From the NCBI GenBank assembly GCA_009602735.1, contig WELA01001907.1, forward strand, positions 278,129 through 342,128: a stretch of DNA of 64,000 nt. Direction: 5' to 3'. This DNA is from Mesotaenium endlicherianum (Eukaryota). Positions 14,801 to 61,800 of the stretch are shown in pieces. The notes below the pieces were generated by a model that searched no databases, was not told where the DNA came from, and saw nothing but the letters and a program-made list of their open reading frames with translations. Position numbers and translations under genes: made by a program. Position 1 is the first letter of the stretch. The number at the start of each line of letters is the position of its first letter.

Positions 14801-14821
14801 AGTTATCACAGTCTTCTTTGT

Positions 14822-16300: not shown

Positions 16301-16317
16301 TCCAGTCTACTGACTGT
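16276..16317 (+). promoter_or_regulatory. -1 ribosomal frameshift signal between gag and pol (family A)
   Basis: Slippery T-TTA-AAA in the gag frame (16276-16282), 7-nt spacer, 10-bp stem ACAGTCAGTA/TACTGACTGT (16290-16317). The -1 frame is open into the protease. Confidence 0.8.
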
Positions 16318-22074: not shown

Positions 22075-22159
22075 GGGCAGCAGGCTGGGGATAAGAGGGA
22101 CAGCACGCTGTTATTAGTGATAGTGTTGTCGAGGCGACAACATGATAAGTTGGAGGGAT

Positions 22160-30612: not shown

Positions 30613-33164
30613 TTAACCTCTCAGCGAAAAGAATTTCTGCAATAATCGCTTATCCTTACTCCTCTTTATGCTATCATTCAAAGGACTGCTACCATCATCA
30701 CCTGCAGAAGGTGGTCCATGACCAGACACAGGATGCAACCGCAATGGCTGTTGAATTTTTTTTGGACAAAAATCATCACCATCGACCTTCAAGCTTTCTA
30801 TGTTCATATCAGCAGGATCAAAAACAAGGACACTTGTTTGTCTTGCTGCTGCACTATCTTCCAAACTAACGTGTTCCCTCGCTGCAACTCTGTCTTCCTC
30901 CTCCTTGTGCTGCTGTAGTAGATCCTCTACCCTTTGTATGGCAGCCACAGAATTGTCTCGATGCATCAGAAAATAGCCCTGAATCATGGCAGGGCTAATG
31001 GTGCCCTCGGGCAACTGAGTGGCAAATTTATTTGCTTCACTTTGTGAGGCTTCTGGATAGAATTTTAGAAATAGGTTGATCAGTTGTAGCCTAGAGCACA
31101 GACCTATGAAAAGGCGCAAGTCCACCCTACCAGGCCTGATGAGGGCAGGATCCAAGCGGTGCAGATGGTTGGTGGTCATCACCAACAATCTTCCTTCTTG
31201 GGCAGAAATGCCGTCAATGGCATTGAGGAGTCCAGAGAATGAGAGCCCGTTGTGCTTCTCATTTCCATCCGTCCTCTTGTTTGTAAATGCAGCGTCAACA
31301 TCTTCGAGGACAAGAATGCTGTGGGTGTCACAGCGATTCATGGCAGTATGAAGCTGCATACGTCACATAAAACATAGTATCAGATGGTTCCAAAGCATCC
31401 TAACATGCCTGCCAGCAGATACGACACACACAGGGAGATCGACACTTCTACAAGCAGACGATAATCAAAAAAATGAAGCAACATGACGTACCATGTCATC
31501 ACTCATTTCTTTGGACGATAGCCCAACCATGGCAACATCAAGGCCAAGTTCTCCAGCTAGAGCTTGGATGAGTGATGTCTTGCCACACCCGGGCGGACCG
31601 TACAGTATATATCCCCTCCTATGAGGTATACCTCTGTCATTATACCTGCAATAATATCAGGACCACTGTACGCACAAATAAAATCCTCCAAATTTTACAC
31701 ACAACCTTTCAGGGAAGGCCACAGGGCATTGGTGATTTAAATCAGTAAAGGCAAGACAGTATCCTGCAAAGCAATCAGAAGCACACAACAGATGCTGCCT
31801 TCCTACTCTGAATGAGAAAGTAGCAGAGAGAGCGCACCAATTGTAGCTGCCGAGAAACTGTCGGGCATCCGCCACAAGGCCCTCCACATCGCAGTCCAAT
31901 ACCACACTGCATATGTACCAACCAGCCTCAAGCCGCATCACGAGTGCCGCAACAGGCATTTTTAAAAGTAAGTACTCGCACAGACAATGCTTGTGGTGCA
32001 GAACACCACGAAACTAATACCTCTATAGGGCAGGAGGTCAAGAGGGGACGGCATGACTGCTAGCATTCACCTATTCAAAGGGCGAGCAAGTCTCGTGGCA
32101 ACAACGTTCCAGTAGTATTCCTGGGCATTCCATCTCTTTATCGTTGTCTTCCTGGTTCCTTCTTCCTTCTTGAAATAAGTCTCCATAGCATCGTGTATCA
32201 CAGCTTCCAGAACATCCCTTGTTGGACCCTCTATAACAAGTTGCTCCTTTCCTCCAGCTGACTGCAAAAGAGTTGCTAAATCACCACCGTCTGCCTCTCC
32301 TTTATTAGCAGCTCCAATCTTTCGCTGAATCTGGAATACGACCTGCATATGGAGAAGTCATTCAGAAACCGACACATGCTTGCGACACACAATCAATGTT
32401 GAGACAAGCCTATGTCCTCTGCATCAGCAGTCAATGGGCTGAATTCAGCTGCCCACGTAACTTCACCTCTCTCTTGCTCTTCACTCTGTTCACACGTCAC
32501 TCCAAAGATACGGGAATAACAATCCCAACCTGTCAGAAAGCAATACCCTCTACTACTAACAGTTGTAACACTTCCATCTGCGCAACTGCGGTAAACTGAC
32601 AAGACCATGCACAGTACCCTCGTCGGATAAAGTTCTTCACTGAAAGGGAATATGCATGTTTGACAACAAGAAATGAAGTAAGCTCCTCTCCACCATCTGA
32701 AATCGAATCAAAGGGGCGCTGCTCCCTTATTTGCTTACCTTCTGGCCCTCGTATATGATGGTTTGAGCCTCGAGAAGCTGAGGTAAAAATAGCAAGCGGG
32801 GACGTGCAGTAGAATCTCGCTGGCTCCCTCCATCCCCGTAGTCGTCAGGTCTATCTGAGGGCAGGCCCCATTTTGTCTGGAGCGTCAGCTGCGATGAATC
32901 TTTTGTAGCGTGTTGACAAAGCCATTCTTGCAGCCACTGAAAGGCTTCTTCGTCCGGCTTCACATAAACTACATATATGCCCCTTCTGCGGCTAACGTAC
33001 TCCCAAAATTGAGCCCAATATTTTCGGAAGAAATTAGCAAGAAACCCTACTAGCATTAAACCAAACCCCCCGGCAAAGTAGTCATTCTGCAAATACTGCC
33101 TCTTCAATGCAGAAACAACTGCTTCTTGACCACCTACTAGCCAATCTGAGGAAGTATCATTCAT
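30613..33164 (-). CDS. BCS1: BCS1-type mitochondrial AAA ATPase; exons 33164(or 33236)-32739, 32342-32071, 31906-31838, 31645-31492, 31353-30613
   Basis: N-terminal [16 protein letters not shown] segment; [34 protein letters not shown] (Walker A); ILVLEDVD (Walker B); [29 protein letters not shown]. All four introns are GT..AG and preserve frame. Confidence 0.92.
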
Positions 33165-33539
33165 GTGACCAGTCAAATGGCTACGGGGTATGCTCCAGTG
33201 AGTAACATAGTTCTGTTTATGACGGATCAACCCCATCGCACAAATTTCTACAAGCACAACCCCGCTAAGTACCCTCTTGTCTGCATGAGCTGTTCACCAA
33301 AAGTACGATGACACTTCTTCATCTCGGAGTCGCTCAATCAATGTTTCTTCATCTCGCCTGGACTTTATTTACTTCAAGGAGACGCAACTGTACTCGTATG
33401 CGAAAATCCTTCACACACGTATTCTAGAGTCGATCGAAATATGATGAGGTATGACCAAGTATGACGAAGTAAAAGAGTAATGAGTCGACAGCATGGAATC
33501 GGTGCGAGGAAGGTTTATGGGAAAACCGTAGCTTTTCCT

Positions 33540-38169: not shown

Positions 38170-39116
38170 TGTAATGAATCAGTATATTGGTAGATATAAT
38201 ATTCATTTGAATATAATAGTTTAAATAGTTCAGCCTGCTCAACTTTAGTTAATATTGAGTCTGCTGGACTTCATAAAATAATCAGTTTAATAACTCAGCC
38301 GGGAGCAGCAGGCTGAAGTCAACTTAGGTCAGCTTTGTAAGGTCATAGGTTTATAAAGTGCATTTTTGAGTTTCATAAAATTATGTTTGGATTGTACATT
38401 CATGTAGAGTGCATTTTTGTGGTCATTTTGATATAAAGTTCATCGAATTTGGTCAAGTATTGAGAGAGTTATGGATTTCCAAAGTTTAATTAGTTTTGAA
38501 GTCGGTTGACGACTGTCCTTAATTCGCGGTGAGCGCGACCGTCGGATTGACCGACAGCGTCGAGCGATCTGGCCCGTTAGAATGAACTCGAACCTTCACG
38601 TAAGTTCGGCTGACGCGGAGTGCCGACTAGGTCGATTTACCTAGAAGTTTCGGTTTAGCCTAGCGCGTCTAAGATAGAATATTCTAGTAATGTCGATGCA
38701 TGTATGTGGACGTCAATTCGGCCCGACACGTCAGATTAGACTGATCTGGCTTACTCACGAATATTCTGGAAGGGACGATTTGACGAACACTTAGGAAAAT
38801 CCGTAGCTTCCTCCTAGGGAGGAGCACTTAGGCAGAAAATTATAAATAGGCATAACTTCTTTGTTTCTTATCAGTTTTCACTTCTGTAAATTTCTACGGG
38901 TTTGTAATGACAAGGCCTTTCATCCTACATCATTTGTGAGCAGTTTCCTGCTACTCAAAATGTTGAGTAATTTTCCTAAGCTTTGTTAGTGATATGCCGC
39001 TGCACTCTCTAGTATGATGGCAACTAGTTCCTTTCCTCGTGAGTCACTACGCTTCCACTAGGGCACTCTGCCCCTTTCATCTGGTATCGGAGCAGGGCTA
39101 GTTTGCATATTATATT

Positions 39117-40148
39117 ATGGAGTCGCAGCCGGCAGCTGGAGGAGGCGAACATGTCGAGCATGTTGAGCGCGCGGGGCAGCAGGCAGCACCAACAATGACC
39201 AGAGAGCAACAAGAGATGCAGGCGATGCTAAGACAAATGGCAAATGCAATTGGAGGAGAAGTCTACACCCAGTTTCAACAAAATATGCGCGCGGAGGTGG
39301 AGAGAATGGTGCGAGTTGTTATGGGGAACGCCGCTTCGACGAGTTCGGCACCTGCACCTGTTGTACCACCGATTCATGTTAACCCAGTGGTGCAACCAGT
39401 TATTCCACCCGCATCAGGAGTGCGTGCGCCTAAGCCTGAAGTTTATACTGGAGAGCGTGGATCGCCGCCTGTTCATCAATGGATTTTTGGAGTGAAGAAG
39501 TTTATGGAGTATTCTGCGCTCACGCCCGACAGGCAAGTCGCCTTTGTCATAACTTTGCTGCAGAAGAGTGCTGGAGCTTGGTATGAACGAGAAGAGCAGC
39601 TGTCTGGAGTTCCTGCTACTGTTGATCAGCTATTTGAAGGCTTGAAGAGGCAATTTCAACCTATTGCACCCGAGGCTACCGCTCGAGATCTATTGGTGCG
39701 CCTTCGTCAACGAGCAAGCGTTCAAGAGTATGTATCGCGCTTCAACGAGCTGGTGCTTCAATGTCCATCCATGCACGAGTCGGAGATGATGGACAAGTTC
39801 AAGAGGGGACTCAAGCCAACTGTGGCCAAGGAAGTGGCGCTCAAGGACCCTACCAGTCTTGGAGAAATGATGGCATTGGCAACAAGGGTCGACGCTGTGG
39901 AGTATAGTCAGAGGCAGTGGGGCAGCCACAACTTTGGAGGATATCGACACTTTGGATCTCAAGCGCCAAGCACGAGTGTTCAAGGTCCAGTACCCATGGA
40001 GTTGGGACTTGTGCAGTACCAGCGCAGGCAGCAGAATTTCAAGCCGAGAGGACCGTGCTATAGTTGCGGCAAGCTTGGACATCTGGCTCGAGACTGTCAT
40101 GTGAAGGCGAAGCAACCTCAACAGCAGGAAAAAGGAGGACGCCAGTAA
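39117..40148 (+). CDS. gag: Gag, family B (343 aa)
   Basis: [35 protein letters not shown], knuckle [14 protein letters not shown]. Confidence 0.96.
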
Positions 40149-43100
40149 GTCGTTCTGGGGTGTCTACTGGCGTGAAGACGAGAACTCACAAGGAGGTTAT
40201 CCCCAGGAGCCTGCCGAGAAGCAAAGGACGAGACGTTGACAAGCCTATCATCGTGGAAGGAGTGGTCGACGGCAACAATGCGAAGTGTATGGTCGACAGT
40301 GGCGCAAGTGCAAACTTTGTGCACAAGAAGCTGGTGAAAGAGTGGCGAGTCCCTGTGCAGAAGCATTATGAGCCTAAGGAGGCAATTTTGGCAAATGGGC
40401 AGAGACTCAAGTGTGGTGCACCTACGGAAGCTATTCACGTGGAAGTAGCGGGGCACCGGAGTAAGGAAGTTATGGAGCAGGCAGAGTTGGGTCACCATGA
40501 GGTGATATTGGGCCGACCATGGCTGAGGAAAGCCAACCCTCAAGTGCACTGGAGCACAGGACAAGTGAAAGTCCAAGGGCGTGATGGTCGAATGGAGACA
40601 GCGAAACAGGTGGAGGTAGATACGACCACAAGTAACTGTCTTCTGTCGAGCCTGCAAGTTAAGAAGCTATGCAGGGCGAATCAGGTGAAGGAGATGTACC
40701 TTGTTTCGGTGGCCCTGGCCAGGTCATCAGATGGAGCAAGCGTGAATCCTAACAGCCTGGGCGAATGTACATCGCCGGAGGAGCAAGTAGTGGTGTCTGA
40801 TCCCCTTGCTCAGAAGGAGCAGAGCCCAACTGCTCAAGAGAAGAAGCCTGCTGAGATGCCTGCCCAAATTAAGGCGCTGTTGGAGGAGTTCAAGTGCGTA
40901 TTTCCTGAGGAGCTACCTGCAGGATTACCTCCACAGAGAGCTATGGAGCACAAGATTGAGTTGGAACCAGGGAGCAAGCCACCAGTGAGACCCGCCTATC
41001 GACAATCGTTTGCGGAGTTGGATGAGTTGAAGAAGCAGCTGACAGAGTTATTGGAGAAGGGATTCATCCGACCCAGCGAGTCTCCATTTGCAGCGCCAGT
41101 CTTATTTGTGAAGAAGAAGGATGGGACTATGAGGATGTGTGTCGACTACCGGGCACTCAACAAGGTCACCATCAAGAACAGGTACCCACTTCCACGAGTG
41201 GACGAGTTGATTGACAGGCTTGTCGGGGCGAAGTATTTCTCGAAGATCGATTTGAGGAGTGGCTATCACCAGGTACGGATTGCGGAAGGAGACGTTCAGA
41301 AGACTGCTTTCAGAACTCGCTATGGTTTGTTCGAGTTCACAGTCATGCCTTTTGGATTGACTAATGCACCTGCTACATTCATGGGACTCATGAATAGTAT
41401 CTTCAGACCCTACTTGGACCAGTTTGTGGTGGTATTTTTGGACGACATCCTGATCTATTCGAAGACCTTGGAGGAGCATGTGGGGCATCTGAGGAAGGTG
41501 TTGGAGGTCTTGAGAGATCAAAAGCTGTATGGGAAGATGAGCAAGTGCGACTTCTGTCTCAAGGAGGTCGAGTTTCTTGGACACATAGTGGGAGCTGAAG
41601 GAGTCAAGGTGGAGCAGAAGAAGGTGCAAGCAGTCAGAGATTGGCCGGTACCTGCTGATATTCATCAACTCAGGAGTTTCCTCGACATGGCGAATTATTA
41701 TCGACGTTTCATTGAAGGATTTGCCAAGGTGTGTGCACCGCTCACGGACATGTTGAAGAAGCAAGAGAAGTGGCTATGGGGTGACAAGGAGCAGCAAGCC
41801 TTCGAGAAGATTAAAGAGCTGTTAACACAGGCACCTGTGTTGGCAATTGCCAGCCCAGAGCTTCCGTTCACCATCATCACGGACGCATCAAATTTCGCAG
41901 TGGGAGCCATTCTTCTCCAAGACCAGGGCAACGGATTGCAGCCTGTGGCATATGAGAGCAGAAAGTTGAGTCCTGCGGAGCAGAACTATGCAGCACACGA
42001 GCGAGAGATGTTGGCTATTATCCAGGCTTTGAGAATTTGGCGATGTTATGTGGACGGCCGGAAGGTGTTTATCAAGACCGACCACAAGAGCTTGGAGAAA
42101 TTTATGACGCAGCCAACGTTAACACCAAGACAAGCAAGGTGGATGGAGTTTCTGCAACAGTTCGACCACAAGATAGAGTACTTACCTGGGAAGATCAACC
42201 CTGCAGACGCTCTATCCAGGAGGTGTGACCTTGCAGCTGTCTCAGTCATCAAGGAGAATATGGACTTCAAGGAGAAGCTTCAGAGAGGTTATGAGGAGGA
42301 CCCAGAGTTCGCTGATGGTAGAGCAGCTGAGTCCAACTCGAGTATGCAGAAGAAGGACGGCATATGGTATTATGGTGATTCCAAGAGAGTGGTGGTACCT
42401 GACATCAAGGAGCTACGAGACTTACTACTTGCGGAGCATCATGACTGCTTATATGCTGGACACTTTGGAAGCGAGAAGACGGCAAGCGTGCTGAAGCGGG
42501 AATACTACTGGAGAAATATGGACAAGGACATCGAGGAGTGGATCAGGAGTTGCGATGCGTGCCAGAGAAACAAGACACCAAATCAAAAGAAGGGAGGTAC
42601 ATTGCGGCCCCTGCCTATTCCAGAGTATCCTTGGGAGCAGATTGCTATGGACTTCATCACATCGTTACCAGTCAGTGGTCAAGGGCACGATGCAGTATGG
42701 GTAGTGTCTGACAGACTCAGCAAGATGGCTCACTTCATTCCCATGAAGGAGACTTCTACGGCAGCAGATGTGGCACGGCTATTCTTTGATCATATTTTTA
42801 GGCTACATGGGTTGCCGAAGGTGATTGTTTCAGATCGAGATCCAAGGTTTACTAGCAACTTTTGGCGGTCATTGTTTACTTTGATGGGGACCAAGCTGAG
42901 TATGAGCACTTCCTATCACCCTCAGACAGATGGGCAGAGTGAGAGGCTCAACAGAACTCTGCAAGAGGTGCTCAGGAGTTTCACTATGGAAGACCCTTCA
43001 GAGTGGGACAAGAAGCTACCAGGGTTGGAGTTTGCCTACAACAACAGCATGCAGGGATCGACCAAGCAGTCACCATTCGCTATGGTTTATGGGAGAGAAG

Positions 43101-43768
43101 TATATCATCCAGGGAACATCTTGTTGGAGAAGGCCAAGGAGACTCAGGTTCCTACTACACAAGCTTTTATGGAGCAGATGGCCAAGACTTGGGATATGGC
43201 GAAGACGTGTATTCGGAAGGCACAGGAAGAGCAGGTCAAGCATGCTAACAAGCACAGGAGGGAAGTGACATTCCATGTGGGCGACAAAGTACTCTTGTCC
43301 ACAGAGAACCTACCTTTCACAGGCAAGAGGAAACTGCGGGCACGGTTTACAGGTCCCTTTGTAGTGCTCAAGCAGGTGAATCCAGTGGCCTACAAGTTGG
43401 AACTTCCTTCAGGCTGGCGTATCCATGATGTGTTCCATGTCAGTTGTCTACGGCCATACGTTGACCCGAATGAAGGACATCCAGGACGACTACCTACACC
43501 GCCACCACCGGTCGAGATCGATGATGTATTGGAGTATGAAGTGGAGGCGATTGTCGGCGATCGACGAGTCAAGCGAGGTCAACGATTTGTCCAAGAGTAT
43601 CTGGTCAAGTGGAAAGGTTACCATGCGGTCGACAACACTTGGGAGCCAGAGGCCAACCTGACTCATTGTAAGAGTAAGTTGAGACGTTATCTGCAGAATG
43701 CGTCGAGGACGTCGCATCTTGAGGAGGGGGATGATGTAAGGTCAGAGGTTTATAAAGTGCATTTTTGA
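40127..43768 (+). CDS. pol: Pol, family B (PR-RT-RH-IN-chromodomain), in the -1 frame relative to gag; ends inside the 3' LTR
   Basis: Uninterrupted ORF with VDSGAS, FLDD, TDAS, HHCC, D,D35E, FTGPF and [23 protein letters not shown]. Confidence 0.97.
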
Positions 43769-45218
43769 GTTTCATAAAATTATGTTTTGATTGTACATTC
43801 ATGTAGGGTGCATTTTTTTGGTCATTTTGATATAAAGTTCATCGAATTTGATCAAGTATTGAGAGAGTTATGGATTTCCAAAGTTTAATTAGTTTTGAGG
43901 TCGGTTGACGACTGTCCTTAATTCGCGGTGAGCGCGACCGTCGGATTGACCGACAGCGTCGAGCGATCTGGCCCGTTAGAATGAACTCGAACCTTCACGT
44001 AAGTTCGACTGACGCGGAGTGCCGACTAGGTCGATTTACCTAGAAGTTTCGGTTTAGCCTAGCGCGTCTAAGATAGAATATTCTAGTAATGTCGATGCAT
44101 GTATGTGGACGTCAATTCGGCCCGACACGTCAGATTAGACTGATCTGGCTTACTCACGAATATTCTGGAAGGGACGATTTGACGAACACTTAGGAAAATC
44201 CGTAGCTTCCTCCTAGGGAGGAGCACTTAGGCAGAAAATTATAAATAGGCATAACTTCTTTGTTTCTTATCAGTTTTCACTTCTGTAAATTTCTACGGGT
44301 TTGTAATGACAAGGCCTTTCATCCTGCATCATTTGTGAGCAGTTTCTTGCTACTCAAAATGTTGAGTATTTTTCCTAAGCTTTGTTAGTGATATGTCGCT
44401 GCACTCTCTAGTATGATGGCAACTAGTTCCTTTCCTCGTGAGTCACTACGCTTCCACTAGGGCACTTTGCCCCTTTCAAGCTTGCTGACACATGCTTTGA
44501 CAGCCAGCTGACTTCCGTACTCGGTAGCAGCAAACTGCCTAGATATGCATTTAAGTGTGGTATGCTAAATGAATGGCCAGATGACATCCTTCGGATGCAT
44601 GGCAATTCGGAATGACGGGAGATGGCGGTGGATTTTGTTATACGAGGTCCTACCAATGTGGTTAACTCCCGGGTAGGCAGTGCCATCGCACTGGTCGTTG
44701 AACAGTAAACTCATTTCGTGTACATATGCTGGGTATTGCTCTCAAGTTCGGCATTCGGAACGAGGCCAACTCTCTTGTACAGCTTACTAAGAGATATTTG
44801 AATCCAAAGCGAGAAGCCATTGATATGCACTGTCTTCTAGCCTTGCTTACTTATGAGTTTACTGATTGCATTATTGATGCTAGTTTACTTGCATTTGACT
44901 TGCGAGTATTGTCCATTGCTAGTGTGTTGTCCTTTGCTGTTTAATCATTTAACAGAAAATACCATAAAGATTACTTGCTGATATAAGGATCTTTATTCAT
45001 TGTTAATCGCCTATTTGGTAAGTCAATTCATTTCAGTGGTATTGGAGCGGTTATCACAGTCTTCTTTGTATGATAAGGACAAGGTCTCAAGCTAGCAACT
45101 CCCGAGACATGGAGAACCAGGACAACGAGAATGTTGAAAATCGAGCTGAAAGCCATGTCGCGGGAACCCGTACCTATTCTGAAGCAGTGGCAGATACTTC
45201 TCCTAGAGAGGCTGCAGA

Positions 45219-45546: not shown

Positions 45547-46371
45547 TGAAATGAATCGACTTACCAAATAGGCGATTAACAACTAATAAAGATCTTTATA
45601 TCAGCAAGTAATCTTTACGGTATTTTCTGTTAACTAGTTAAACGGCAAAGGACAACACACTAGCAGTGAACAATACTCGTAAGTCAAATGCGAGTAAACT
45701 AGCATCAATAATGCAATCAGTAAAACTCATACATAAGCAAGACAGTGCGTATCAATGGCTTCTCGCCTTGGATTCAGGGTTCTCTCAGTAAGCTGTACAA
45801 GAGAGTTGGCCACGTTTCCGAATGCCGTGCTCGAGAGCAATGCCTAGCATATGTACATGGAATTATTTTACTGTTCAACGGCCAGTGCGATGGCACCGCC
45901 TACCCGAGAGTTAACCACGTTGGCAGGACCTCGGTTAACCAAATCCACCGCCATCTCCCATCATCCCAAATCGCCATCCATCATAGGGATGTCATCTGGC
46001 CATTCATCTAGCATATCACACTTAGATGCATATCAAGGCAGTTCGCTGCTACCGAGTACGGAAGTCAGATGGCTGTCAAAGAATGTGTCAGCAAGCTGAC
46101 TTAAGTTGACTTCAGCCTGCTGCTTCTGGCTGAGTCATTAAACTAATATTAAATATGAAGTCCAGCAGACTGATTATTAACAAGAGTTCAGCAGGCTGAA
46201 CTCATTTAACTATTACATTTAAATGAAAACTATATCTACTAATATACTGATTCATTACAATCCCTCCAACTTAACTTGTTGTCGCCTCGACAACATTAAA
46301 CTGCAGAAGTCTTAAATAAGGGAACTGAACTTGACCAGCCTTCCCCACTGACTGCCTCTTTAGCCTGTCAC

Positions 46372-48047
46372 CTAAGGGGTTGTTCCAGGGGCTTCAGGAT
46401 CAGGAGACTGGGATTCGGACCTAGATCTGGACAGCCCTCTAGGTCTGTCAGCTGGCCTTCTAAAGAACCCCGTTTGTTCTAAAGTTGGACCTCGAGGAGA
46501 ACAAAGGTAGGTAGCCTGCTCTTCACCCACTTGGATGTTGATCCCCACATAGACAGGCATTCCAGTAGGATGCTGAAATACAATGGCAAGAGGTACATGT
46601 CTAGAGCGAAGGGCAAGGCCGGCATACCTCTGGCCATCCCGCGTGTCCCTCTTCTGAAACCCCTGTCCTCTGGGGATTTCGGGCTGTGTCTGCTGCCAAG
46701 TATAGTCAGATCAGCTTCTTCCCCTGCTTGGGCAGGTGGGCTGGGGGAGCGAGTGCGGGGTCCAGTTGCCTCCATGACCGGGATCACGTTCCATATACCT
46801 GATCTTGGTTCCTTAAGAAGTGCCCCTGCCTGCTCCTGGGTCTCCTGAGTACCAGCTCCTGATGCTTCTGCTCTGCCTTGTTCTTCTTCCTCATCCTCCT
46901 CATCCTCCTCCTCTGAGAGAGTAGGAGTCTCGTCCACTAAGTCGTCTTGCTCCCTGGTAGACATGGAGTAGTCTACTGACCTCCCTTTCTTAGGGCGCGC
47001 TGGAGGTTGCTTGGCCTTCAGCCTGCTGATATCTATCCGGCCTGCATTCTTCGTCCATTTGACGAAGGCATGCTTTCCCTTAGAGAAGTAGTCTCTTCCC
47101 CTCCTCCTGTGCTCTTTGGTCTCTGCATTCATATTGCTCAGGCAGCCATTCAGCCTTGGGTTCGAAGGGGCAATGTGAGGTGGTAGGATGAGGTAGCCGT
47201 CTAGGCCATAGTGGAAATCGTCTGGTTGGGCTCGGTCACAATCCTGCTTTTTGTTTGTGACGGTCATCCACCTCCAGTCTGTTGGCTGCTGGTAGTACTG
47301 GGGTTCATGCTCAGCCTTTCTCGGTTTACATGGGAACCACTGGGGAGAGAACATCTGCTGTCCGGCCTCCCTGGCCAAGTACTCCCAGCTCCTTCTCTCA
47401 ACTTCATTGTAAGCTGGCAATAGTGTGAGGTAGAATACCGTATCCTTGAAGCTATCTGGCCGCATGCTCACCATCCCGATAGGTCTTTGATCTCCCACTA
47501 TTCCCGATATTGGGACTGGCTTGTCCTCTGAATCATCGGCAAGGTAACGGGCCTGCTCTGCTGTGTAGCCCACCATCTTGGCATAATCCTCGTAGAGGAC
47601 CATACCAGTGTGTGTCTGAATGTACCTATCCAGTGCTGCAGTTCCTTCCCTCTGTGGCAGTGTTGTCTGTTCCAGCTTGTTGATCTCTTGGGCTGCCAGC
47701 AATGCTTCTTTTAGGTAGTCAAAGTTTTGGCCACCCACCACAGTATACCTGTAAGTGGCCAAGCTCTTCTGCCTGTCCGCTTCAGCCTTTTTCCTTCTCT
47801 CCTCCTTTGCCGCTGCCGCTTCTTCTTGTTGTTTCTTCTGTCTCTCCTCCTCAGCTTTCCTGAGGTTTTTCGCTTCCTGATCCTTCTTCCTCTGTGCTTC
47901 TTCTGCCGCCTCTTGTTGTTTGCGGACCCTTTCTTGTTCTCTCCTGGCGAGGGACGTCGCCGCGAGCTCCTTCTGGTATTGCTCCATTGTCCTCCTGGCT
48001 TCTTCTGCCTTGCGCTTTCTGTCCTTCTTTTGTGTGGTGGGAGCCAT
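46372..48047 (-). CDS. ORF3 type b, diverged homologue of 20410-22074; one frameshift near 46610
   Basis: Shared motifs YRYTV, LYxDYAxMVGYT, DSFKD, YNEVERRSWExLARE, W(Y/F)PC, PTDWRWMT, LPPHIA..PRLxG, FSKGKHA, PKxGRSV. The C-terminus (MPVYV...) continues in ORF 46372-46560. Confidence 0.88.
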
Positions 48048-48407
48048 TTTGCACATGTAGCCAGGGCACAAGTTAGTAGGATATCGACCTTTGTCCTAGA
48101 AGTTGCAGGAAGGGAGTAAGTTCGTATTAGTATGGTATATTCGTTCCTGTTTACCTTACAGGGTGATTGCTAGGAGTTGACGTAGTTGCGGTGTGCTAGA
48201 CATAAACGTACAAATATGTTTTCCTTTTTCCTCCAGCTAAAGATGCTTTATGTGGGCAAGGCTGTCCCCTCTGTCACTATGCTGACTCTTAGAAAGCACA
48301 TAACTGTCTCTTTCTCGCTCTCGCACACTAACTGTCATATTTTTTCCCCTCGAACTTAAATGGAGACAGGACCTCCTGTCACCTTCCCGTGTCAAATGAA
48401 ATGATTG

Positions 48408-51400
48408 TTAGGGAGGTGCTCCAGCCGCCCGGAGGTGGAACCGTTTCAACGCCCCTTTGGCATTAGTCAAATGGTCTTTAAATTCCCAATTGTCCCCAGA
48501 GGCATCGTAAGCCTTCCATCGAATGAGGTACTTCATGACATATTTAGATGATCGACGGACCGAGCGCGCGTCTAAAATCTCCTCAACCTCATATTCCTCA
48601 GGGTCGCCGTCCCAAACAGCGGGGACCGGTCCCGGTTGGAAAGGTAACAGACCTGTGAACAGTGTATCACCCTTGATGTATGGTTCCAGGAAGGAGACAT
48701 TAAAGACCGGATGACCCTTGTATTCGGTCGACATGTTCAGTTTGTAAGCATTCTGACCGACACGGCGCACCACCGAATATGGGCCGACCCAGACAGGGCC
48801 CAGCTTTTTCTTGACCACGCCAGGGAGGTACAGGTGCTGAGAATGCAGTTTGACCAAATCGCCTTTAGAAAAGGTCAGTTCTCGACGGTGCTGATTAGCG
48901 TACTTTTGTTGGTTTTTTTGGGCTTTGTGCAGGTTCTGCTGGACTTTTGACAGGGTGTCAGCAAACTCTTGAGTTAATTGGAGGGAGACCGGATTGTCAA
49001 TCCCTTAAGGGTAAGTTAAAGACTCCCCTAAGACATCTAAAGAAGACTTAGGGACTCTATCCAGGCTTAGTTCAAAAGGAGTCTTGCCCGTTGACGCGTG
49101 CACCGCACTGTTGATCGCGAATTGGATTTGGGGTAACAGGTCATCCCAATTATCTTGTTTTTGGTTAATATAGGCTCTCAGTACCTCTTGCAGAACTCGG
49201 TTAGTTCTTTAGTCTGCCCATCAGTCTGAGGGTGGTTTGCTGTGCTGAGCAGCTGTTTGACTCCCATTAACCCCATTGAAGTCCTCCAGAACTAAGAGGT
49301 AAATTTTGAGACTCTGTCTGAGATTATATTAGAAGGTAGCCCATGTTGGCATAGTACATGGTTGTAGAATTGTCTTGTAGTTTCGAGTGCAGTTACTTTG
49401 ACAGTTGTGGGGATGAAAATGACCATTTTTGTCAGTTTATCCACGACCACCAGTATCGAATCATGCCCATTGGCAGTTCGTGGCAATGTGACCACCTAGT
49501 CCACGGATATTGTTTCCCAGCGGCCAGCTGGGATGGGCAGCGGTTGTAAGAGACCCCCCGGTGGTGTGTGCCTAGACTTATTCTTTGGACAGTGGTCAAA
49601 GGACTTAACGTATTTCAAGACCTCCCAAGGTAATCCCTCCCAATGAGAATGTTTTGCCAGTTTGCCAACAGTTTTGGCCTGCCCCAAATGCCCACCCAGT
49701 AAACTGTCATGTGCTTGACTCAATAAAAGGGACCTTATTTCCACATTATTAGGAATGACCAGCTTCAGCCTGCCTGAAGTGGTTTCGGTCACCCAGACCC
49801 CTCCCTTAAGCTTATACCCGAGTGCATTAGCACGAAACATACCAGTATTGGGGCAGGGCTCAAATATTGGGTCAAAAAGGTAGGCTTTCCTAAGTTGTTC
49901 AAGGAAGGACTTTTTCACCTTTAGTGAAGTGAGTGCACACAGGACTTTATCTACAGCATGCTGACTAAAGGTCCTTTCTTGCAAGTCAGGTCTTCTACAG
50001 AGTGCATCAGCAGGATTTAACTTCCCTGGTTTGTAGTCGATCTAGACTTGAAACTGCTCCAGCATCTGGCTCCAACGATTCTCGCTCCTTGACAGCTTGG
50101 ACTTCCTCTAAAGTGAGTCAGAGCTAGATGATATGTAATCACCTTAAGAGCTTTACCATGTAAGTATGCTCTCCACTGTTTGAGCACATGAATGATAGCT
50201 AGCAGCTCTTTATCATGCACTGAGTAATTAATCTGCGCTGGATTAAATTTCATAGACTTGTACGACACAGGATACCACTCCTGCCGTACCTTACCATCCT
50301 TTGTGGTTTTGTCAGCAGGCTGCAACAAAATAGCACCCATGGCAAAGTCAGAGGCATCAATAACCACCTGCACCGATTTGCTGGGGTCATACACGGCTAG
50401 CACTGGGGCAGAACAAAGAGCATCTTTAAGGGTCTGGAAGGCAGCCTGCTGCTCTTCCCCCCACACACACCCTATGTCTTTCTTAGTAAGGTCAGTCAGA
50501 TTACTGGCCTTTGTAGAATAATTCTCAATAAATCTCCTATAGTACTTAGCCAACCCGAGGAAGGATCTAATTGCAGAGACAGACTGGGGTACTGGCCATT
50601 CCCTTCTGGTCTGGACTTTCTTAGGATCCACACTGATGCCTTCTTTACTGACAACGTGGCCTAAGAATTCAATACTTTCTTTAATGAAATCACACAAATA
50701 AGGTCTGAAAATGTCATTCATAGCACCCATGAAGGTTGCAGGAGCATTAGTAAGTCCAAATGGCATCTCGTTGAACTCATAGTGTCCATAACGTGTGCGG
50801 AAGGCAGTCTCGTGTTCATCCTCCTCAGCAATTCTGATTTGATGATAACCACTTTTGAGATCTATCATTCAGCAACTTGCATCCTTCTGGAAGCCTCTTC
50901 TTTTCCTTCAGTTGCCATCCACACAAGACAAGAGGAAGAGCACTGGTGGGTGCCAAGTAAGTCTGCCCATAACCATTTTCCTCAAGCTCTGCAATCTGTG
51001 GTTTCAACTCCTCGCTCTCCACATAAGACAAGCCATACGTGCGTTGCCAAGGTGGCTGACTCCCAGGTAATAGATCAATCCTATGATCTACTTCCTTCTT
51101 AGGGGGTAGTCCTGGAGGCATATTAAATACATCAGTGTACTGAGCAACAATTTTTGCAGCAGTAGGGTGCTCCGGAGGGCTTACCTTTTTCTCAACCACT
51201 TCTTCAGGTTGAGGAGGTACCTCTCTTAGCAGCAGACAGAACATTCTGTCTTCCTTCTGGTTCCAGCTTTTGACGAACTCCATTGCATTCAGCAACTTGC
51301 ATCCTTCTGGAAGCCTCTTCTTTTCCTTCAGTTGCCATCCACACAAGACAAGAGGAAGAGCACTGGTGGGTGCCAAGTAAGTCTGCCCATAACCATTTTC

Positions 51401-52445
51401 CTCAAGCTCTGCAATCTGTGTTTTCAACTCCTCGCTCTCCACATAAGACGAGCCATACGTGCGTTGCCAAGGTGGCTGACTCCCAGGTAATAGATCTATC
51501 CTATGATCTACTTCCCTTTTAGGGGGTAGTCCTGGAGGCATATTAAATACATCAGTGTACTGAGCAACAATTTTTGCAGCAGTAGGGTGCGTCGAAGGGC
51601 TTATCTTTTTCTCAACCACTTCTTCAGGTCGAGGAGGTACCTCTCTTAGCAGCAGACAGAACATTCTGTCCTCCTTCTGGTTCCAGCTTTTGACAAACTC
51701 CATTGCATTCAGCAACTTGCATCCTTCTGGAAGCCTCTTCTTTTCCTTCATTTGCCATCCACACAGGACAAGAGGAAGAGCACTGGTGGGTGCCAAGTGA
51801 GTCTGCCCATCACTGGCTCCTCTCACATCAACTGTACCTCTGCTCCAACACACTTTAGCTTGATGTCTCTTAAGCCAGCACCTGCCTAGCACGAGATCAT
51901 AAAAGCCAGTGTTGAGTACCTCAAATGTAAGCGTTTCAGTTAGAACTGCAATGCCAGAACCTAACTGGACCTCAATAGGCTTGGTTATAACTCCTCCCGG
52001 GATACTTGAGGCATCTCCAAGGAATATTTTTCTATTCCNAATATTTCTCTATTCCCTTGGGTGACAGTAGGCAGCCTTAGCCGCTTAATTAAGTCCTTAT
52101 GGATAAAAGTATGTGACGCCCCTCCGTCAACAAATGTCCTCACCTTCCTACCTGCAATCATGCAATGCAGTAGGATAGGGGGGACTGTCTTTTCCTGACT
52201 TTCGCATTGTTCTCCTGACGTAGCAAAGAAATGTTGGACATCAGGTGGAACAAGAGCATCCAGAGTGTGCACTCTCTGGACGTCTATATTACTGATGGTC
52301 TCCTTTATCTGTTTGTCAGGCATGCATAGTGAATCCAGTTCAGCAGGACCAATAATACCTGCTACGAGGGCAGCTAGTGACGACTCACTATCTCTAGCAT
52401 CCTCACAGTCAGTAGAATGGATTACTAACTGTTGCTGTCTTTTAA
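48408..52445 (-). pseudogene. pol: Pol of A4 with stops, a 420-bp tandem amplification and deletion of the RT FLDD core
   Basis: Fragments match A2 pol; FRPYL is joined directly to CDFIKES; the repeat unit recurs at about 50866, 51286 and 51706. Confidence 0.92.
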
Positions 52446-54652
52446 AGGCTGGTGTTTTCTCTCGACTTTTGAGAGGTGCTTGTCTGGACACTGCTCTCTG
52501 AGTGACCTGGCTGCTGGCAATGGAAGCGAATCGATTTTGCTGAGGCTGGTCTCGGCTTAGTCCTACCACCACCTCTTCCATAGCCGCCTCAAGGGCAACC
52601 ACCTCTACCTCTAGACTATATGGCATTATACTCATACTCATATCCATCACCCTGATCATCCTCAGCCTGGTCTCCTTCAACTGCATTGTAGGAACCGTGG
52701 GGCTTTTTGACAATCTTAGACACCAAAGCGTTACTCTGGCGCTTGTGATTGAACTGCTGCTGATCCCAGGCGTCAGCATCCTGGATCAAGTCAGCCAGTT
52801 TCTCATACTTTTTCTCAGCAAAATGACCAGAGACCTCGGATTTCAAGCCATACCTGAAGTATGCTATCCTATACCGTTCTGGCAAGTCTGGCTGCTTCAT
52901 CATGTCCTCCTGGAACTTTTGAGCAAACTCAGCGACTGAAGTGGTCTGCTTCAGTGTCAGGGAGATCATCGCATAGATAGCTTTCTCCTGCTGGTTGATG
53001 ACATCAAACTTCTCATGCAACTTCTTGACAAACTCTACCCACGTAGGGTCACCGAGTTGCCGAGCCTTACGCTCTCCTTTCCAGTAAAGCCACCAGTCTG
53101 CGGCACTGCCTTTCAGTAGCGCACCGGTGTGCCTGACCTTCTCGTAATCTTGCAGTTCTGGGTAGTTCTCCAGCCACTGCTCAACATCCGCGAGAAACTT
53201 GATCAGGTAATATTTTCTGTTTCCCTCACGATTATATTCCTGGGGAGATTTTGGCTTGGGCTTACTAGGCCCTCGGCCACCACCACTAGGGGTTTGAGAC
53301 CTCAGTTGGTCTCTGTCCCGCAGTAGAGACATTATGATTCTTTTGTCCTCCTGCTGGGACTGATACATGGTCGCCATTTGCGACTGCATCTGAACGAACA
53401 ATGCTCCCAAGTCTACATTTTGGGGTGGTAGATTAGCAAATGCAGCAGCAGCATTGGCATCTACTCGCTGAGTAGTGTCCTCAACAATCCCTCTTGCTCC
53501 TGCAGCAGCAATTCCTGCCGCATTCAGCCGGTCACGTATTTGACCTAGGGGTACATTGAGTTGTACGGCAGGAGGTGGGTTCAGAACATTGGCCCTTGAT
53601 GCCATAAGTTCTTCAACAGTGCGCTCGTCAGCTGGCTGTCCTTCCCTCCTTTGTATATCTTCAGCGGCCTTTGCTACTTGTTCAGCTTCTAGTTTGGCTG
53701 TCTCCTCCTCAGCTTGCTGAGCTGCGACTGAGGCAATAGCAGCTGCCTCATCTGCTGCCTCCCTAGCTGCAGTATCCGCTATTGCTTCCGAGTAGGTACG
53801 GTTTCCCGCTACATGGCTTTCCGCCTGGTTTTTGACATTCTCGTTATCCTGGTTCTCCATGTCTCGAGAGTTGCTAGTTTGAGACCTTGTCCTTACCATA
53901 CAAAGAAGACTGTGATAACTGCTCTAGTAATACTGAAATGAATCGACTTACCAAATAGGCGATTAACAACAAACAAAGATCTTTATATCAGCAAGTAATC
54001 TTTATGGAGTTTTTGTTAACTGATTAAAGGGCAAAAGGACAAAACACAAGCAGTGAACAACACTCGTAATCAAATACGAGTATACTAGCATCAATAATGC
54101 ACTCACTAAACTCATACATAAGCAAGGTTAGAAGACAGTGCGTATCAATGGCTTCTCGCCTTGGATTCAGATCTCTCTCAGTAAGATGTACAAGAGAGTT
54201 GGCCTCGTTTCCGAATGCCGAACTCGAGAGCAATGCCTAGCATATGTACATGGAATGAGTTTACTGTTCAACGGCCAGTGCGATGGCACCGCCTACCCGG
54301 GAGTTAACCACGTTGGTAGGACCTCGGTTAACCAAATCCACCGCCATCTCCCATCATCCCGAATCGCCATCCATCATAGGGATGTCATCTGGCCATTCAT
54401 CTAACATACCACACTTAGATGCATATCGAGGCAGTTCGCCGCTACCGAGTACGGAAGTCAGCTGGCTGTCATAGAATGTGTCAGCAAGCTGACTTAAGTT
54501 GACTTCAGCTCACTGCTTCTGGCTGAGTCATTAAACTGATATTAAATGTGAAGTCCAGCACACTGATTATTAACTAGAGTTTAGCAGGCTGAACTTATTG
54601 AACTGTTATATTTAAATGAATATTATATCAACCAATATAGTGATTCATTACA

Positions 54653-57600
54653 TCTAGACACACACCATCGGGGGGCTTCTTACAACCGCTGCCCATCCCA
54701 GCTGGACGCTGGGAAACAATATCCATGGACTGGGTAGTAACACTGCCACGAATTGCCAATGGGCATGATTCGATACTGGTAGTCGTGGATAAATTGACAA
54801 AAATTGTCATTATCATTCCCACAACTCTCAAAGTAACTGCACTCGAAACAGCGAGACGGTTCTACAACCGTGTAGTATGCCAACATGGGCTACCCTTTAA
54901 TATCATCTCAGACAGAGACTCAAATTTACCTCTAAGTTGTAAAGAGCTTTAATGGGGTTAATAGGAGTCAAAGAGTTGCTTAGCACAGCAAATCATACTC
55001 AGACTGATGGGCAGACTGAAAGAAATAAACGAGTTCTGCAAGAGGTGCTGAGAGCATACATTAACCAAAAACAAGACAATTGGGATGACCTATTGCCTCA
55101 AATCCAGTTTGCGGTCAACAGTGCGGTGCACGCGTCAACGGGCAAGACTCCTTTTGAACTGAGCTTGGGTAGAGTCCCTAAGTCTCCTTCAGATGTACTA
55201 GGGGAGTCTTTATCTCACCCTGAAGGGATTGACAATCCGGTCTTCCTCCAGTTAACCCAGGAGTTTGCTGACACCCTGTCAGAAGTCCAACAGAACTTAC
55301 ACAAAGTCCAGGAAAACCAACAAAAATACGCTAATCAGCACCGTCGAGAATTGACATTCTCTAAGGGCGATTTGGTCAAATTGCATTCTCAGCACCTGTA
55401 CTTGCCTGGTGTGGTCAAGAAAACGCTTGATCCTGTCCGGGTCGGTACATATTCGGTGGTGCGCTGTGTTTGTCGGAATGCTTACAAATTGAACATGTCA
55501 GCAGAATACAAGGGTGACCCAATATTTAATGTCTTCTTCTTAGAACCATACATTGAAGGTGACACGCTGTTCACAGGTCGGTTACCTGTCCAAACGGGAC
55601 CGGTCCCCGCTGTCTGGGATGGTGACCCTGAGGAATATGAGGTCGAGGAGATTTTAGACGCTCGCTTTGTCCGTTGATCATCTAAATATGTCATGATGTA
55701 CCTGGTCAGATGGAAGACTTACGACGCCTCTGGGAACACTTGGGAATTTAAAGACCATTTGACCAATGCCAAAGGGGCGTTGAAATGGTTCCACCTTCGG
55801 GCGGCTGGCACCCCTCCCTAACTGTCATTTCAGTGGATATGGAGAGGTGACAGGAGGTTCTGTCTCCATATAAGTCGGAGGGGAATGTGACAGGTAGTGA
55901 CCGATAGTGGCAGTTGTGACAGGCAGGCCACCTTTCAAATTATGTTGAAGGGAGTGTGTTCCGTTTCGGGTTCAGCCAGGCAAATTGCATAACCATTTTG
56001 CACACTCAACCTGCCCTCATACACACTTTTTCTCTCTAACTCAATTCTCTCTTATGCTCACTCACACAAGGTACTACACACGAGGGACTCTTCCTATCAC
56101 GTTCTTCTGCACCACGGGCACTCAGTCGCGGCAAAGTATCATGACTTCAGTGACCGCATTGTGTTTATGATGGAGCAGGATGACTTAGAAGTCGGAACTT
56201 AAGAGGAATAGAAGAGCGGAAAAGACACATGCAAAATGCTTGCAATTCCGTGGCGACATCGAATCATCCTCCATCTCCGTTCGGGAATCACAACGACTCC
56301 AACAACAGCGGGAGGCACAAAAGAAGAAGAAAGAGGAGGAATAGGCCAGGCGGAGGCAGGAAGAACTGGACAGAAAAGCTGCAGAGGAGGCCAAGAAGAC
56401 AGAAGAGGAGAGGCAAGCTGAGGAGGGGCGGAGGCAGCAAGCAGAAGAAGAACAAATGAGAATTAGCAGCTACCGCTACACAGTGCTGGGCAAGGGCTTT
56501 GATCTACTGGAGGAGGCCTTCAAGTATGCCCAGAAAAGTCGCAGTGAGGCACAGCAGGACATCGTGCAGAGCGAAGGGGAGACATCTACAAACCTTTACA
56601 AGTATATAGAGGTCAGCACAGGACTCCTCCTTTACCACAATTATGCCAGAATGGTAGGATATATGGTCAGAGAGGCCAAGGTAATGGCCCAGGTGAATGA
56701 AGCAGGAGCTGTATCAATTCCGGGTATCTGGGGGAAAGATAAGGTCATCAGGATGATCCCCATGGACGCGGACAGCTTTAAGGACTCTACATCCCATAAC
56801 AGGTTCAAGGCAATGTATAATGAGGTGGAGAGAAGGAGCTGGGAATTTTTGGCAAGAGAAACCAATTAGCTGGACTTCGCAGGGCACTGGTACCCTTGTA
56901 CTATGAAAAGGACAGACCTTGCCTTCTTCCAGAAACCCAGTGTTAGTGTTGTCGAGGCGACAACATGTAAAGTTGGAGAGATTGTAATGAATCAGTATAT
57001 TGGTGAATATAATATTCATTTAAATATAATAGTTAAATAAGTTCTGCCTGCTAAACTTTGGCTAATATTGAGTCTGTTGGACTTTATAAAATAATCAGTT
57101 CAATGATCCAGCCGGGAGCAGCAGGCTGAAGTCAACTTAGGTCAGCTTGCTGACACATTCTATGACAGCCAGCTGACTTCCGTACTCGGTAGCAGTGAGC
57201 TGCCTAGATATGCATCTAAGTGTGGAGTGCTAGATAAATGGCCAGATGACATCCTTAGGATGGATGGCGATTCGGGATGATGGGAGATGGCGGTCGATTT
57301 AGTTAACCGAGGTCCTACCAATGTGGTTAACTCCCGGGTAGGCGGTGCCATCGCACTGGCCGTTGAACAGTAAACTCATTCCATGTACATATGCTAGGTT
57401 TTGCTCTCAATTTCTGCATTTGAAAACAAGGCCAACACCCTTGTACTGCTTACTGAGAGATATCTGGATCCAAGGCGAGAAGCCATTAATAAGGACTCTC
57501 TTCTAGCCTTGCTTATGTATGAGTTTATTGATTGCATTATTGATGCTAGTTTACTTGCATTTGACTTGCGAGTATTGTCCACTGCTAGTATGTTGTCCTT

Positions 57601-57701
57601 TGCTGTTTATTCAATTAATAGAAAATACCATAAAGATTATTTGCTCATATAAAGATCTTAATTAATTGTTAGTCACCTATTTGGTAAGTCAACTCATTTC
57701 A
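54653..57701 (+). mobile_element. 3' half of a family A element: integrase-chromodomain, truncated ORF3a (56180-~56942), PPT and 3' LTR 56983-57701
   Basis: Colinear with 18916-21172; a ~950-bp deletion then joins ORF3 to the pre-PPT hairpin; several stops. Confidence 0.92.
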
Positions 57702-58864: not shown

Positions 58865-61800
58865 TGTAATGAATTAGTATAATCGTAAATATAATATTCA
58901 TTTATGTATAATAGTTAATTGGGTTCATTCTGTTGAACTCTAGTCAACATTCAGTCTGCTGGACAATATACCATTATCAGTTTAATGACTCAGCCAAAAG
59001 CAGCAGGCCGAAGTCAACTTCGGTCAGCTTGCTGACACATTCTTTGACAGCCAGCTGACTTCCGTATCCGATAGCAATTGAAAGGGGCAGAGTGCCCTAA
59101 TCGAAGCGTCGTAACTCACGAGGAAAGGAACTAGTTGCAACCATACTAAAGAGTGCAGCGGCATATTACTAAGAAGGCTTAGGAAAATTACTCAACATTT
59201 TGAGTAGCAAGAAACTGCTCACAAATGATGAAGAATGGAAGGCCTTGTCATTACAATCCCGTAGATATTTACAGAAGTGAAAACTGATAAGAAACGAAGA
59301 AGTTTTGCCTATTTATAATATTCTGCCCAAGTGCTCCTCTCTAGGAGGAAGCTACGGAATTTGTGTTTGTCAAATCGTCCCTTCCAGATAATTTGTGAGT
59401 AGGCCAGATCAGTCTCATCTGACGTGTCGGGCCAAATTGACGTCCACATACATGCATTGACATTACTCGAATATTTTATCTTAGGCACGCTAGGCTAAAC
59501 CACAACTTCTAGGTAAGTCGACCTAGTCGGCACTCCGCGTCAGCCAAACTTACATGAAGGTTCAAGTTCACTTCAACGAGCCAGATCGCTTGACGCTGTC
59601 GGTCAATCTGACGGTCGCTCTCACCGCAAATGAAGGACAGTCGTCAACCGACCTCATCACTAATTATATTCGGAATTCCATAACCCTCTAAATACTTGAC
59701 CAAATTCAATGAACTTTACATCAGAATAACCACAAAAATGAACTCTACACTACTAAGCAACCAAAAGATACTTTTGGGAAACTTAGAAATGCACTTTACA
59801 CACCTATGACCTTACAGCAGCGAACTGCCTAGATATGCATCTAAATGTGATATGCTAGATGAATGGCCAGATGATATCCTTGGGATGGATGGCAATTTGG
59901 GATGATGGAGATGGCGAAGGATTTGGTTAACCGAGGTCCTACCAACGTGGTTAACTCCCGGGTAGGCGGTGCCATCGCACTTGCTGTTGAACAGTAAGCT
60001 CATCCCATGTACATATGCTAGGTATTGCTCTCGAGTTCGGCATTTAAAAACGAGGCCAATTCTCTTGTACTGCTTACTGAGAGATATTTGAATCCAAGGC
60101 AAGAAGCCATTGATACGCACTGACTTCTAGCCTTGCTTATGTATGAGTTTACTGATTGCATTATTGAAGCTCATTTACTTGCATTTGACTTACGAGTATT
60201 GTCCACCGCTAGTTCGTTGTCTTTTGCTGTTAATCAATTGACAGAAATACCATAAAGATTACTCGCTAATATAATGATATGTATTCATTGTTAATCGCCT
60301 ATTGGTAAATTGATTCATTTCAGTGGTATCGGAGCAGCTATCACAGTAGTCGTGTATGATGAGGACTACGTCTCAAATTAGCAACTCTCAAAAAATAGAG
60401 GGTAAGGACAATGATAACATTGTAAAAGGGCAGGACGAAAGTTGCGTCTTTGGACCCCGTACCTACTTGGAAACGCTACACAATGCAAGAGCTAGAGAAG
60501 CTGCTGAGCAGGCAGCAGCTCTTGCTGCAGTAGCAGCTCAGTTGGCTGAGGATGAGCGTTTAGCCAAAGAAGTAGAGGAGGCAGTAAACAGGAGGGCCCC
60601 AGATGAAAGGACGGTGGAAGAGCATATGGCAGAAAGGGCCATTCTTCGAAACCAATTTCCTGTTGTGCCTACTGTCATACCTCTCCCTCAATTTCGCAGA
60701 CAGGTGAGCGCAACAGGCATAGCCGGAGCGGCAGCAATCGGGAATGCCGAAGCTGCTACTAATAGAGCTAATATTGCTGCTGTTGCGTTTGCTGGGCTAC
60801 CACCTCAGAACGTAAATCTGGGAGCCTTATTTGTTCAGATGCAAATGGCGAGCATGTATCAGTCCCAACAGGAGGACAAAAGGATCATGATGGCATTGCA
60901 GCGTGATAGAGACCAACTGGGTTCCCAAACCATTGGTGGTGGTGGGAGAGGACCTATTAAGCCTAAGCCAAAACCTCCCCAGGACTATGATCTTGAAGGA
61001 AACAAAAAGTATTACCTGATTAATCTTCGCGCTAATGTTGAGCAGTGGCTGGAGAACTACCCAAAATTGCAGGATTACAAGAAGGTCAGGCACACTGGTG
61101 CTCTACTAAAAGGCAGTGCAGCAGACTGGTGGCTGTATTGGAAAGGAGAGCGTAAGGCTCAACAACTCGGTGACCCTACTTGGGTAGAGTTTGTTGAGAA
61201 ACTACATGAGAAGTTTGATATTATCAATCAGCAGCAGAAAGCTATCTATGCCATGATCTCCATGACACTGAAGCAGACCACTTCAGTTGCTGAGTCTCCT
61301 CAAAAATTCCAGGAGAACGTGATGAAGCTGCCCGATTTGCCACAGCAGTATAGGATAGCACACTTCAAATATGGCTTGAAATTAGAAGTCTCAGGTCATT
61401 TTGCTAAAAAGAAGTATGAGAAATGGCTGGCTTGATCTAGGTGGCTGATGCATGGGCTCAACAGCAGTTCAATCACAAGCACTAAAGTAATGCTTTGGTG
61501 TCTAAGATTCTCAGAAAGCCCCACGGTTCCTGTAACGCTATTGAAGGAGACCAGGTTGAGGACGATCAGGGTGATGAGTATGAGTATGAGTATAATGCTA
61601 TGCAGTCTAAAGGGAGAGGTGGATATTCTCAAGGTGGCTATGGAAGAGGTGGTGGTAGGACTAAGCCGAGACCAGCCTCAGCAAAATCTGTGTGCTTCCA
61701 TTGCAAGCAGTTGGGTCACTTCAAAGAGCACTGTCCAGACAAGCACCTCCCAAAGGTCGAGAGAGAAGACCAGCCTTTAAAAGACAGCAACAGTCAGTAA

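Follow-up and report, generated by a model that had tools for sequence, protein, structure and literature searches.

Two ancient types of an orphan third gene, probably brought onto one chromovirus backbone by recombination, in Mesotaenium endlicherianum

A family of LTR retrotransposons in Mesotaenium endlicherianum, family A, carries a third open reading frame, ORF3, in two types, a and b. Comparison of the copies within a 64,000-nucleotide stretch of genomic DNA (the window) makes it probable that the two types split far earlier than gag, pol, and the LTRs of the elements carrying them diverged, with recombination around ORF3 as the likely cause. The analysis relies on the window copies that reach the region 3' of pol, namely A2, A4, and the 3' part of A5, and ORF3 is found in all 3 of them.

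Family A copies and their surroundings

The window is eukaryotic, with coding pieces recognized by Pfam split among nested LTR elements: 2 CBM14 chitin-binding repeats (420-1261, forward strand) and, between retrotransposon nests, a BCS1-like AAA ATPase that includes the N-terminal domain (30613-33293, reverse strand). Four other organisms share 9% to 13% of the stretch's sequence words. A distant, decayed RT-RNase H remnant matching A2 pol at 22% to 29% was also observed (11666-12774, reverse strand).

Pfam analysis of the A2 ORFs identifies family A as a Ty3/gypsy chromovirus, with the order gag-PR-RT-RH-IN between the LTRs and a chromodomain (PF00385, E = 6e-09) at the end of the integrase. 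A2 is a full-length copy (14068-22880, forward strand) with one stop in pol, LTRs (14068-14787 and 22160-22880) that are 3.2% apart and have TG...CA termini, and a target-site duplication of 5 nt, mismatched at one position. Directly 3' of the 5' LTR stands TGGTATCGGAGC, which resembles the initiator-Met primer site. In the Tcn1 clade, according to the accessible part of the source, the tRNA primer site is mostly absent and the elements are self-priming (PMC6317226), a feature that A2, with its TGGTATCGGAGC, does not share. The best-scoring named pol matches are from Closterium and Haematococcus (40% to 49%), and A2 falls on an open fork in an integrase tree of 43 rows, in which A2 and B2 were joined by 41 proteins from a set of 120; references for Chlamyvir, Galadriel, or other named plant chromovirus clades were not among them.

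A4, the copy bearing ORF3b, occupies 54652-45547 on the reverse strand; its gag-pol (48408-53899) is decayed, with stops and frame breaks, and includes a 420-nt tandem duplication (50866-51813). The LTRs of A4 (5' LTR, 53934-54652; 3' LTR, 45547-46259) differ by 7.7%, and its flanks, an LTR fragment on the left and A5 integrase on the right, form no target-site duplication. The 3' part of A5 (54653-57701, forward strand) comprises integrase, a type-a spacer, decayed codons 1-254 of ORF3a (56180-56941), and an LTR (56983-57701); ORF3a is deleted from codon 254 to shortly before a hairpin described below, and the A5 flanks likewise do not match each other.

As to the order of nesting, the A5 5' LTR (38170-38335 and 44479-45035) is interrupted by B2, a copy of a second family, family B, with an intact target-site duplication and LTRs 1.6% apart; an LTR fragment lies inside A5 gag at 45219, and A4 sits in a deletion that took the remainder of A5 gag through RNase H. 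A third ORF is absent from family B, in which pol runs directly into the PPT and LTR (B2, 38336-44478). A more diverged family A copy, A6 (59816-63277; approximately 83% to A2, with gag protein identity of 69% to 74%), is cut off in RT, before ORF3, and is a candidate sister subfamily.

Two homologous ORF3 types between conserved borders

ORF3 is a sense ORF of at least 250 codons located between pol and the 3' LTR, which is how the extra ORFs called aORF-3S or eORF-3'F are delimited. In A2, ORF3a is open over 554 codons (20410-22074, forward strand), whereas ORF3b of A4 (46372-48047, reverse strand, ATG at 48047) has one frame break. The two proteins are identical in 199 of 528 alignment columns (38%; BLASTP E = 6e-98), with 45% identity over 276 residues of the core, and the protein motifs listed in the earlier note are colinear. 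The same note had read ORF3b as an ORF down to 46372. Homology does extend over this interval, but the main frame follows ORF3a only as far as approximately 46640. A single break near 46600-46640, which had gone unmentioned, shifts the frame, and it is in the shifted frame that the HVPL..QHP.GMPVYV motif and the stop codon (46374-46372) are read.

In sliding windows of 200 columns, A2 and A4 DNA are mostly 87% to 100% identical over LTR, gag, and pol (apart from the part affected by the A4 duplication), 47% to 62% identical over the spacer and ORF3, and 89% to 97% identical over the 3' LTR. The backbone is thus similar (approximately 88% to 100%) but patchy, and its description as alike almost base for base was overstated given the integrase (91%), the LTRs (approximately 92%), and the duplication, indels, and stops of A4. 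The claim that the 2 ORF3 types are not alignable as DNA was likewise overstated, BLASTN aligning 372 nt of the core at 65%.

Both BLASTN and the sliding windows locate the drop and return of similarity where they had been placed by eye, after the PPT-like motif that follows pol and at the terminal hairpin and PPT. Similarity stops at A2 20163/A4 48326, approximately 17 nt past the PPT-like tract, and returns at 22121/46298, just 5' of the hairpin. The left border of the divergent region is a post-pol block common to both types (48326-48407 in A4, reverse strand; PPT-like tract at 48357-48347), and the right border is a terminal block consisting of a 19-nt hairpin and the PPT (46260-46298, reverse strand). 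The hairpin is perfect, has an 8-bp stem, lies just 5' of the PPT (22124-22142, 46277-46295, and 56947-56965), and is identical in sequence in all 3 copies, including the decayed A5; it is possibly a packaging or strand-transfer signal, and its ends read like Ty1/copia LTR ends. Copies of the terminal PPT sequence also occur internally just past pol, 2 in A2 (20136 and 20196) and 1 in A4 (48357); they might prime additional plus strands or be left over from an older 3' end of the element. An origin of the spacers from a relic LTR was considered and found unsupported, the spacers matching the LTR by BLASTN only at the PPT-like tract.

ORF3 is conserved and the 2 types are old

Selection was assessed from dN/dS under a pairwise codon model. 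Between A2 and A4, dS is 0.06 in gag, 0.115 in RT-RH, and 0.245 in IN, against 3.1 in the ORF3 core, where dN is 0.46 and omega 0.15 (p = 2e-21 versus omega of 1). A core dS fixed at 0.35 is rejected (2dL = 171), and at the 5% level values of 2.0 and below or of 8 and above are rejected, whereas 3 and 5 are not; simple counting is concordant (pS 0.78 versus 0.26; fourfold sites identical at 17 of 44). The spacers are as diverged between types as ORF3 itself (134 differences over 246 sites). Within type a (A2/A5), ORF3 retains an omega of 0.33 (p = 2e-5; IN omega, 0.12-0.23), and its dS of 0.25 is close to the 0.27 of IN. The purifying selection on ORF3 and the ancient age of its types that the earlier note proposed are both upheld, the former between as well as within types and the latter by a dS of approximately 3 set against 0.06 to 0.25 in gag-pol.

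Since type-a ORF3 and IN have nearly the same dS, the silent sites of ORF3 evolve no faster than those of pol. This equality, taken with the excess of ORF3 dS between types, points to types far older than their backbone, the a/b split being by this clock roughly 10 times older than the backbone differences, and hence favors recombination and disfavors fast evolution. The earlier note's alternative of fast evolution in a host-element arms race, if taken as positive selection on ORF3 with no exchange, could draw on the high dN between types (0.46) and on a type-a ORF3 omega above that of IN. Positive selection does not, however, raise dS twelvefold, nor does it account for a non-coding spacer that is equally diverged or for a type-a synonymous clock that matches IN, and the 3 copies form 2 discrete types with no intermediates among them. 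The codon-model results already largely refute this alternative, which we regard as very improbable.

Backbone and ORF3 are incongruent

The distances among the 3 copies change their order between integrase and ORF3. Over 1,168 integrase sites, A2 and A4 differ at 97, A2 and A5 at 125, and A4 and A5 at 138, whereas over 752 ORF3 sites the corresponding counts are 338, 82, and 350 (Fisher p = 1e-28 for distances among 3 copies; best change point, 20164). The extra decay of A5 accounts for part of the integrase order but not for the reversal in ORF3. The earlier note had named, as the outcome that would count against it, an ORF3 divergence proportional to synonymous divergence in pol with congruent trees; proportionality fails in the codon model (the 2dL of 171 given above), and the three-copy distances are incongruent. 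Differences between A2 and A4 are clustered in leader-gag-PR (p = 2e-4 and 4e-4), where they number 105 in 2,527 and leave identical runs of up to 366 nt; RT-IN shows such clustering weakly (p = 0.04 and 0.10). No clustering of A2/A5 differences was found in IN (p = 0.37).

Recombination might also have acted a single time: a diverged sister family, which perhaps came by horizontal transfer or hybridization, would have given the ORF3 region once to the backbone, after which the 2 subfamilies co-amplified with little exchange. Three copies would give identical data under this scenario, the more diverged A6 is at hand in the window, and the gag of Ty1/Ty1' provides a precedent (PMC7055915, as far as the source is accessible). 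Against it, the patchy backbone and an integrase nearly equidistant among the a, a, and b copies suggest repeated exchange, and the window holds no donor pol of matching age linked to ORF3, family B having no ORF3. We consider a single capture rather unlikely; it is a variant of the recombination explanation, and its share is counted within the probability given to the latter.

Recombination around ORF3, repeated or not, agrees with one half of the earlier description of ORF3 as an exchangeable cassette. Exchange between the backbone and the ORF3 region is indicated by the incongruent distances; a dedicated mechanism is not, and the borders of the divergent region may simply be homology limits. 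We infer that template switching during reverse transcription is the probable route, to which ectopic DNA recombination may add. LTR elements package 2 RNAs and switch templates in reverse transcription, and switching between family members is established in the accessible part of the source (PMC6894440). Because the LTR, primer site, PPT, and hairpin are common to both types, a and b RNAs could be co-packaged. Template switches would need homology, which is offered on one side of the divergent region by gag-pol and the post-pol block and on the other by the hairpin-PPT-LTR segment; they would be blocked inside the spacer and ORF3, only 50% to 60% identical. The backbone would thereby be homogenized and the spacer and ORF3 inherited as one block, an exchange that would call for no special cassette machinery.

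Both ORF3 types are abundant in one DNA run

The missing target-site duplication, the 7.7% LTR divergence, and the flanks of A4 indicate that this copy is probably a post-insertion chimera (a recombinant of 2 insertions) or mis-joined, and the linkage of gag to ORF3 in A4 is for that reason weak evidence. The same features, together with N positions in the window, could be taken to mean that the pairing of backbone and ORF3b is itself an artifact, an assembly or post-insertion chimera in which a family A backbone has been fused with the tail end of some other family. However, ORF3b is followed by an LTR and terminal block with 92% likeness to those of the other copies, which a separate family would need to have as well.

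Sequencing runs bear on the same question. In run X1, a DNA-type run that may be the source sample, depth was taken at 90% likeness with spacer and end bins left out; the median summed contig depth, which is not copy number, is 0.90M over gag-pol (19 bins), 0.31M over ORF3a (6 bins), and 0.35M over ORF3b (9 bins, varying from 0.13M to 0.61M). By this rough measure, each type reaches approximately one third of pol depth and the two together approximately 0.73 of it. With pol depth approximately 3 times that of ORF3a, type a alone is insufficient for the shared pol. Several X1 contigs also pass the left border in b-like letters, 12 of them departing from A2 at 20147 into letters that resemble the type-b spacer by eye (agreement, 0.64). 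ORF3b is present as well in run X5 from another study, as pieces of 279 to 324 nt bearing 10, 22, and 23 differences, at a depth of 24 to 134 compared with 1,370 to 1,520 at the pol end (less than one tenth). The ORF3b type is real and common, and a chimeric origin of the pattern is improbable.

Several other X1 contigs join early ORF3a (20677) to the LTR interior (14222-14224) with a summed depth above 3,500; these joints represent an amplified, internally deleted derivative.

The 2 types together fall short of pol depth by approximately one quarter, so that a third ORF3 type could exist. It is conceivable, though doubtful, that frequency-dependent selection maintains 2, possibly 3, ancient specificity types of ORF3 in the family, in the manner of mating-type or self-incompatibility alleles but on a selfish element that recombines freely. 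If this were true, each type would escape or counter a sequence-specific host silencing or self-restriction that had caught up with the other.

Splice-like signals upstream of ORF3

The spacers between pol and ORF3 (type a, 20164-20409, forward strand, in A2, with the second PPT-like tract at 20196; type b, 48048-48325, reverse strand, in A4) contain similarly placed splice-like motifs. A donor-like AG/GT precedes the ORF3 ATG by approximately 109 nt in type a and 107 nt in type b, and a branch-like CTAAC precedes it by approximately 30 and 29 nt, respectively. CAG-G stands directly 5' of the ATG in both type-a copies; A4 has no AG there, and A5 has no CTAAC. This spacing is kept in spacers that are otherwise saturated, a pattern spotted after the fact, and the chances are about even that ORF3 would be expressed from a spliced subgenomic RNA. 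In 3 RNA runs carrying the same species label, depth over ORF3 is 0 to 8, the reads falling mostly on the LTR and the integrase end, and at this depth no joint at ORF3 is present among the RNA joints listed. In all 3 runs, many reads exit the LTR end (14787) or the gag start (14890) into fixed unrelated sequence, and a few family A LTRs elsewhere are transcribed within other RNAs.

ORF3 encodes an orphan protein without envelope features

ORF3a and ORF3b have the same layout, which opens with basic residues and a charged helical segment of approximately 90 residues, continues with the conserved core (approximately residues 95-345 in ORF3a) and an acidic tract, and closes with a proline-rich tail that holds one conserved motif. 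The proteins have 2 to 4 cysteines. Hydropathy means disclosed no membrane segment (best 19-residue mean, 0.88 for type a and 0.57 and 1.15 for the 2 parts of type b), and N-glycosylation sequons are absent from both ORF3a and ORF3b. An envelope-like gene whose types differ in cell targeting might be suspected from the position and orientation of ORF3, which are those of env, from the splice-like signals 5' of its ATG, and from the frequency of env swapping in retroviruses (PMC10536682, accessible part). Such an identity is hardly credible: neither a transmembrane segment nor a signal-like hydrophobic stretch is present, sequons are absent, cysteines number 2 to 4, and Pfam gives no match. Given the lack of a membrane segment and sequons, the basic start, and the acidic tract, the ORF3 product is likely a soluble protein of the nucleus that helps the element, rather than an envelope. 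On composition and analogy, we tentatively suggest that it acts in trans in the nucleus, for instance against silencing or in the export of element RNA.

The ORF3 protein lies outside every family in the libraries searched. A search of 5.8 billion proteins (lengths 304-970 only; 7,995 candidates scored) returned no ORF3a homologue, a profile of the 3 ORF3 copies had 0 matches at E = 0.001 among 1.84 billion representatives, and an Atlas search with the a and b cores was empty. No match rose above the cut-off in Pfam (one below it, at E = 0.05), and none was significant in NCBIfam (one at E = 0.15) or among PDB sequences (best E, 0.91 and 0.27). Homologues were likewise not found in metagenome and viral contigs or among the set of 120 pol proteins. 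Because a search with family A gag was also without matches, the lineage is taken to be poorly sampled, and the orphan status of ORF3 is relative to the libraries searched. A metagenome scan with the integrase gave 2 short distant loci. The AlphaFold prediction from the 3-sequence alignment was unusable (pLDDT, 35.8).

Comparison with known systems

Extra ORFs and module swaps in LTR elements are already known, whereas the orphan ORF3 gene is new. In the accessible parts of 2 surveys, plant elements commonly have sense extra ORFs, which are of heterogeneous kinds, and SIRE, Athila, and Bagy2 have such ORFs between pol and the 3' LTR, those of SIRE falling into 19 dissimilar groups and that of Bagy2 being spliced (PMC7264820; PMC6317226). 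ORF3 resembles these aORF-3S/eORF-3'F genes in position, orientation, a length of more than 250 codons, and the lack of a conserved domain, but its host is a chromovirus, it has no membrane segment, and family A displays 2 homologous types on one backbone. Fungal chromoviruses carry an "add. ORF" of unknown function (PMC2864245), a likeness by description; no dimorphism is described for it in the accessible part of that source. In the literature covered, outside which most subscription papers fall, we found no report of a dimorphic non-env extra ORF with 2 ancient, co-abundant types on one backbone.

For the exchange itself, and again as far as the sources are accessible, the nearest parallels are in yeast and in retroviruses. 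The Ty1 and Ty1' subfamilies arose by recombination, a divergent gag having been acquired by horizontal transfer with an effect on copy-number control (PMC7055915). As is probable for family A, one divergent gene came onto a common backbone through recombination; unlike in family A, that gene is gag and not an orphan accessory gene. Retroviruses and ERVs swap env (PMC10536682), also a 3' gene between pol and LTR exchanged as a module, but ORF3 is not env-like, and both of its types derive from one ancestral ORF3. A model for its possible role is CERV of the C. elegans element Cer1, an accessory protein required for nuclear export of the genomic RNA according to the accessible text (PMC10309623), by analogy only.

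Extra ORFs differ so widely among LTR retrotransposons that it has been hard to tell if they change rapidly, if they have many origins, and if they have any role, a question that the accessible part of PMC6317226 leaves open. In family A, unlike in that survey, synonymous rates separate old age from fast evolution, and the synonymous clock settles the question for this family: ORF3 is old, conserved, and reshuffled, not fast. With 2 natural ORF3 types on one backbone in one genome, family A offers a ready comparison for finding the role of an extra gene.
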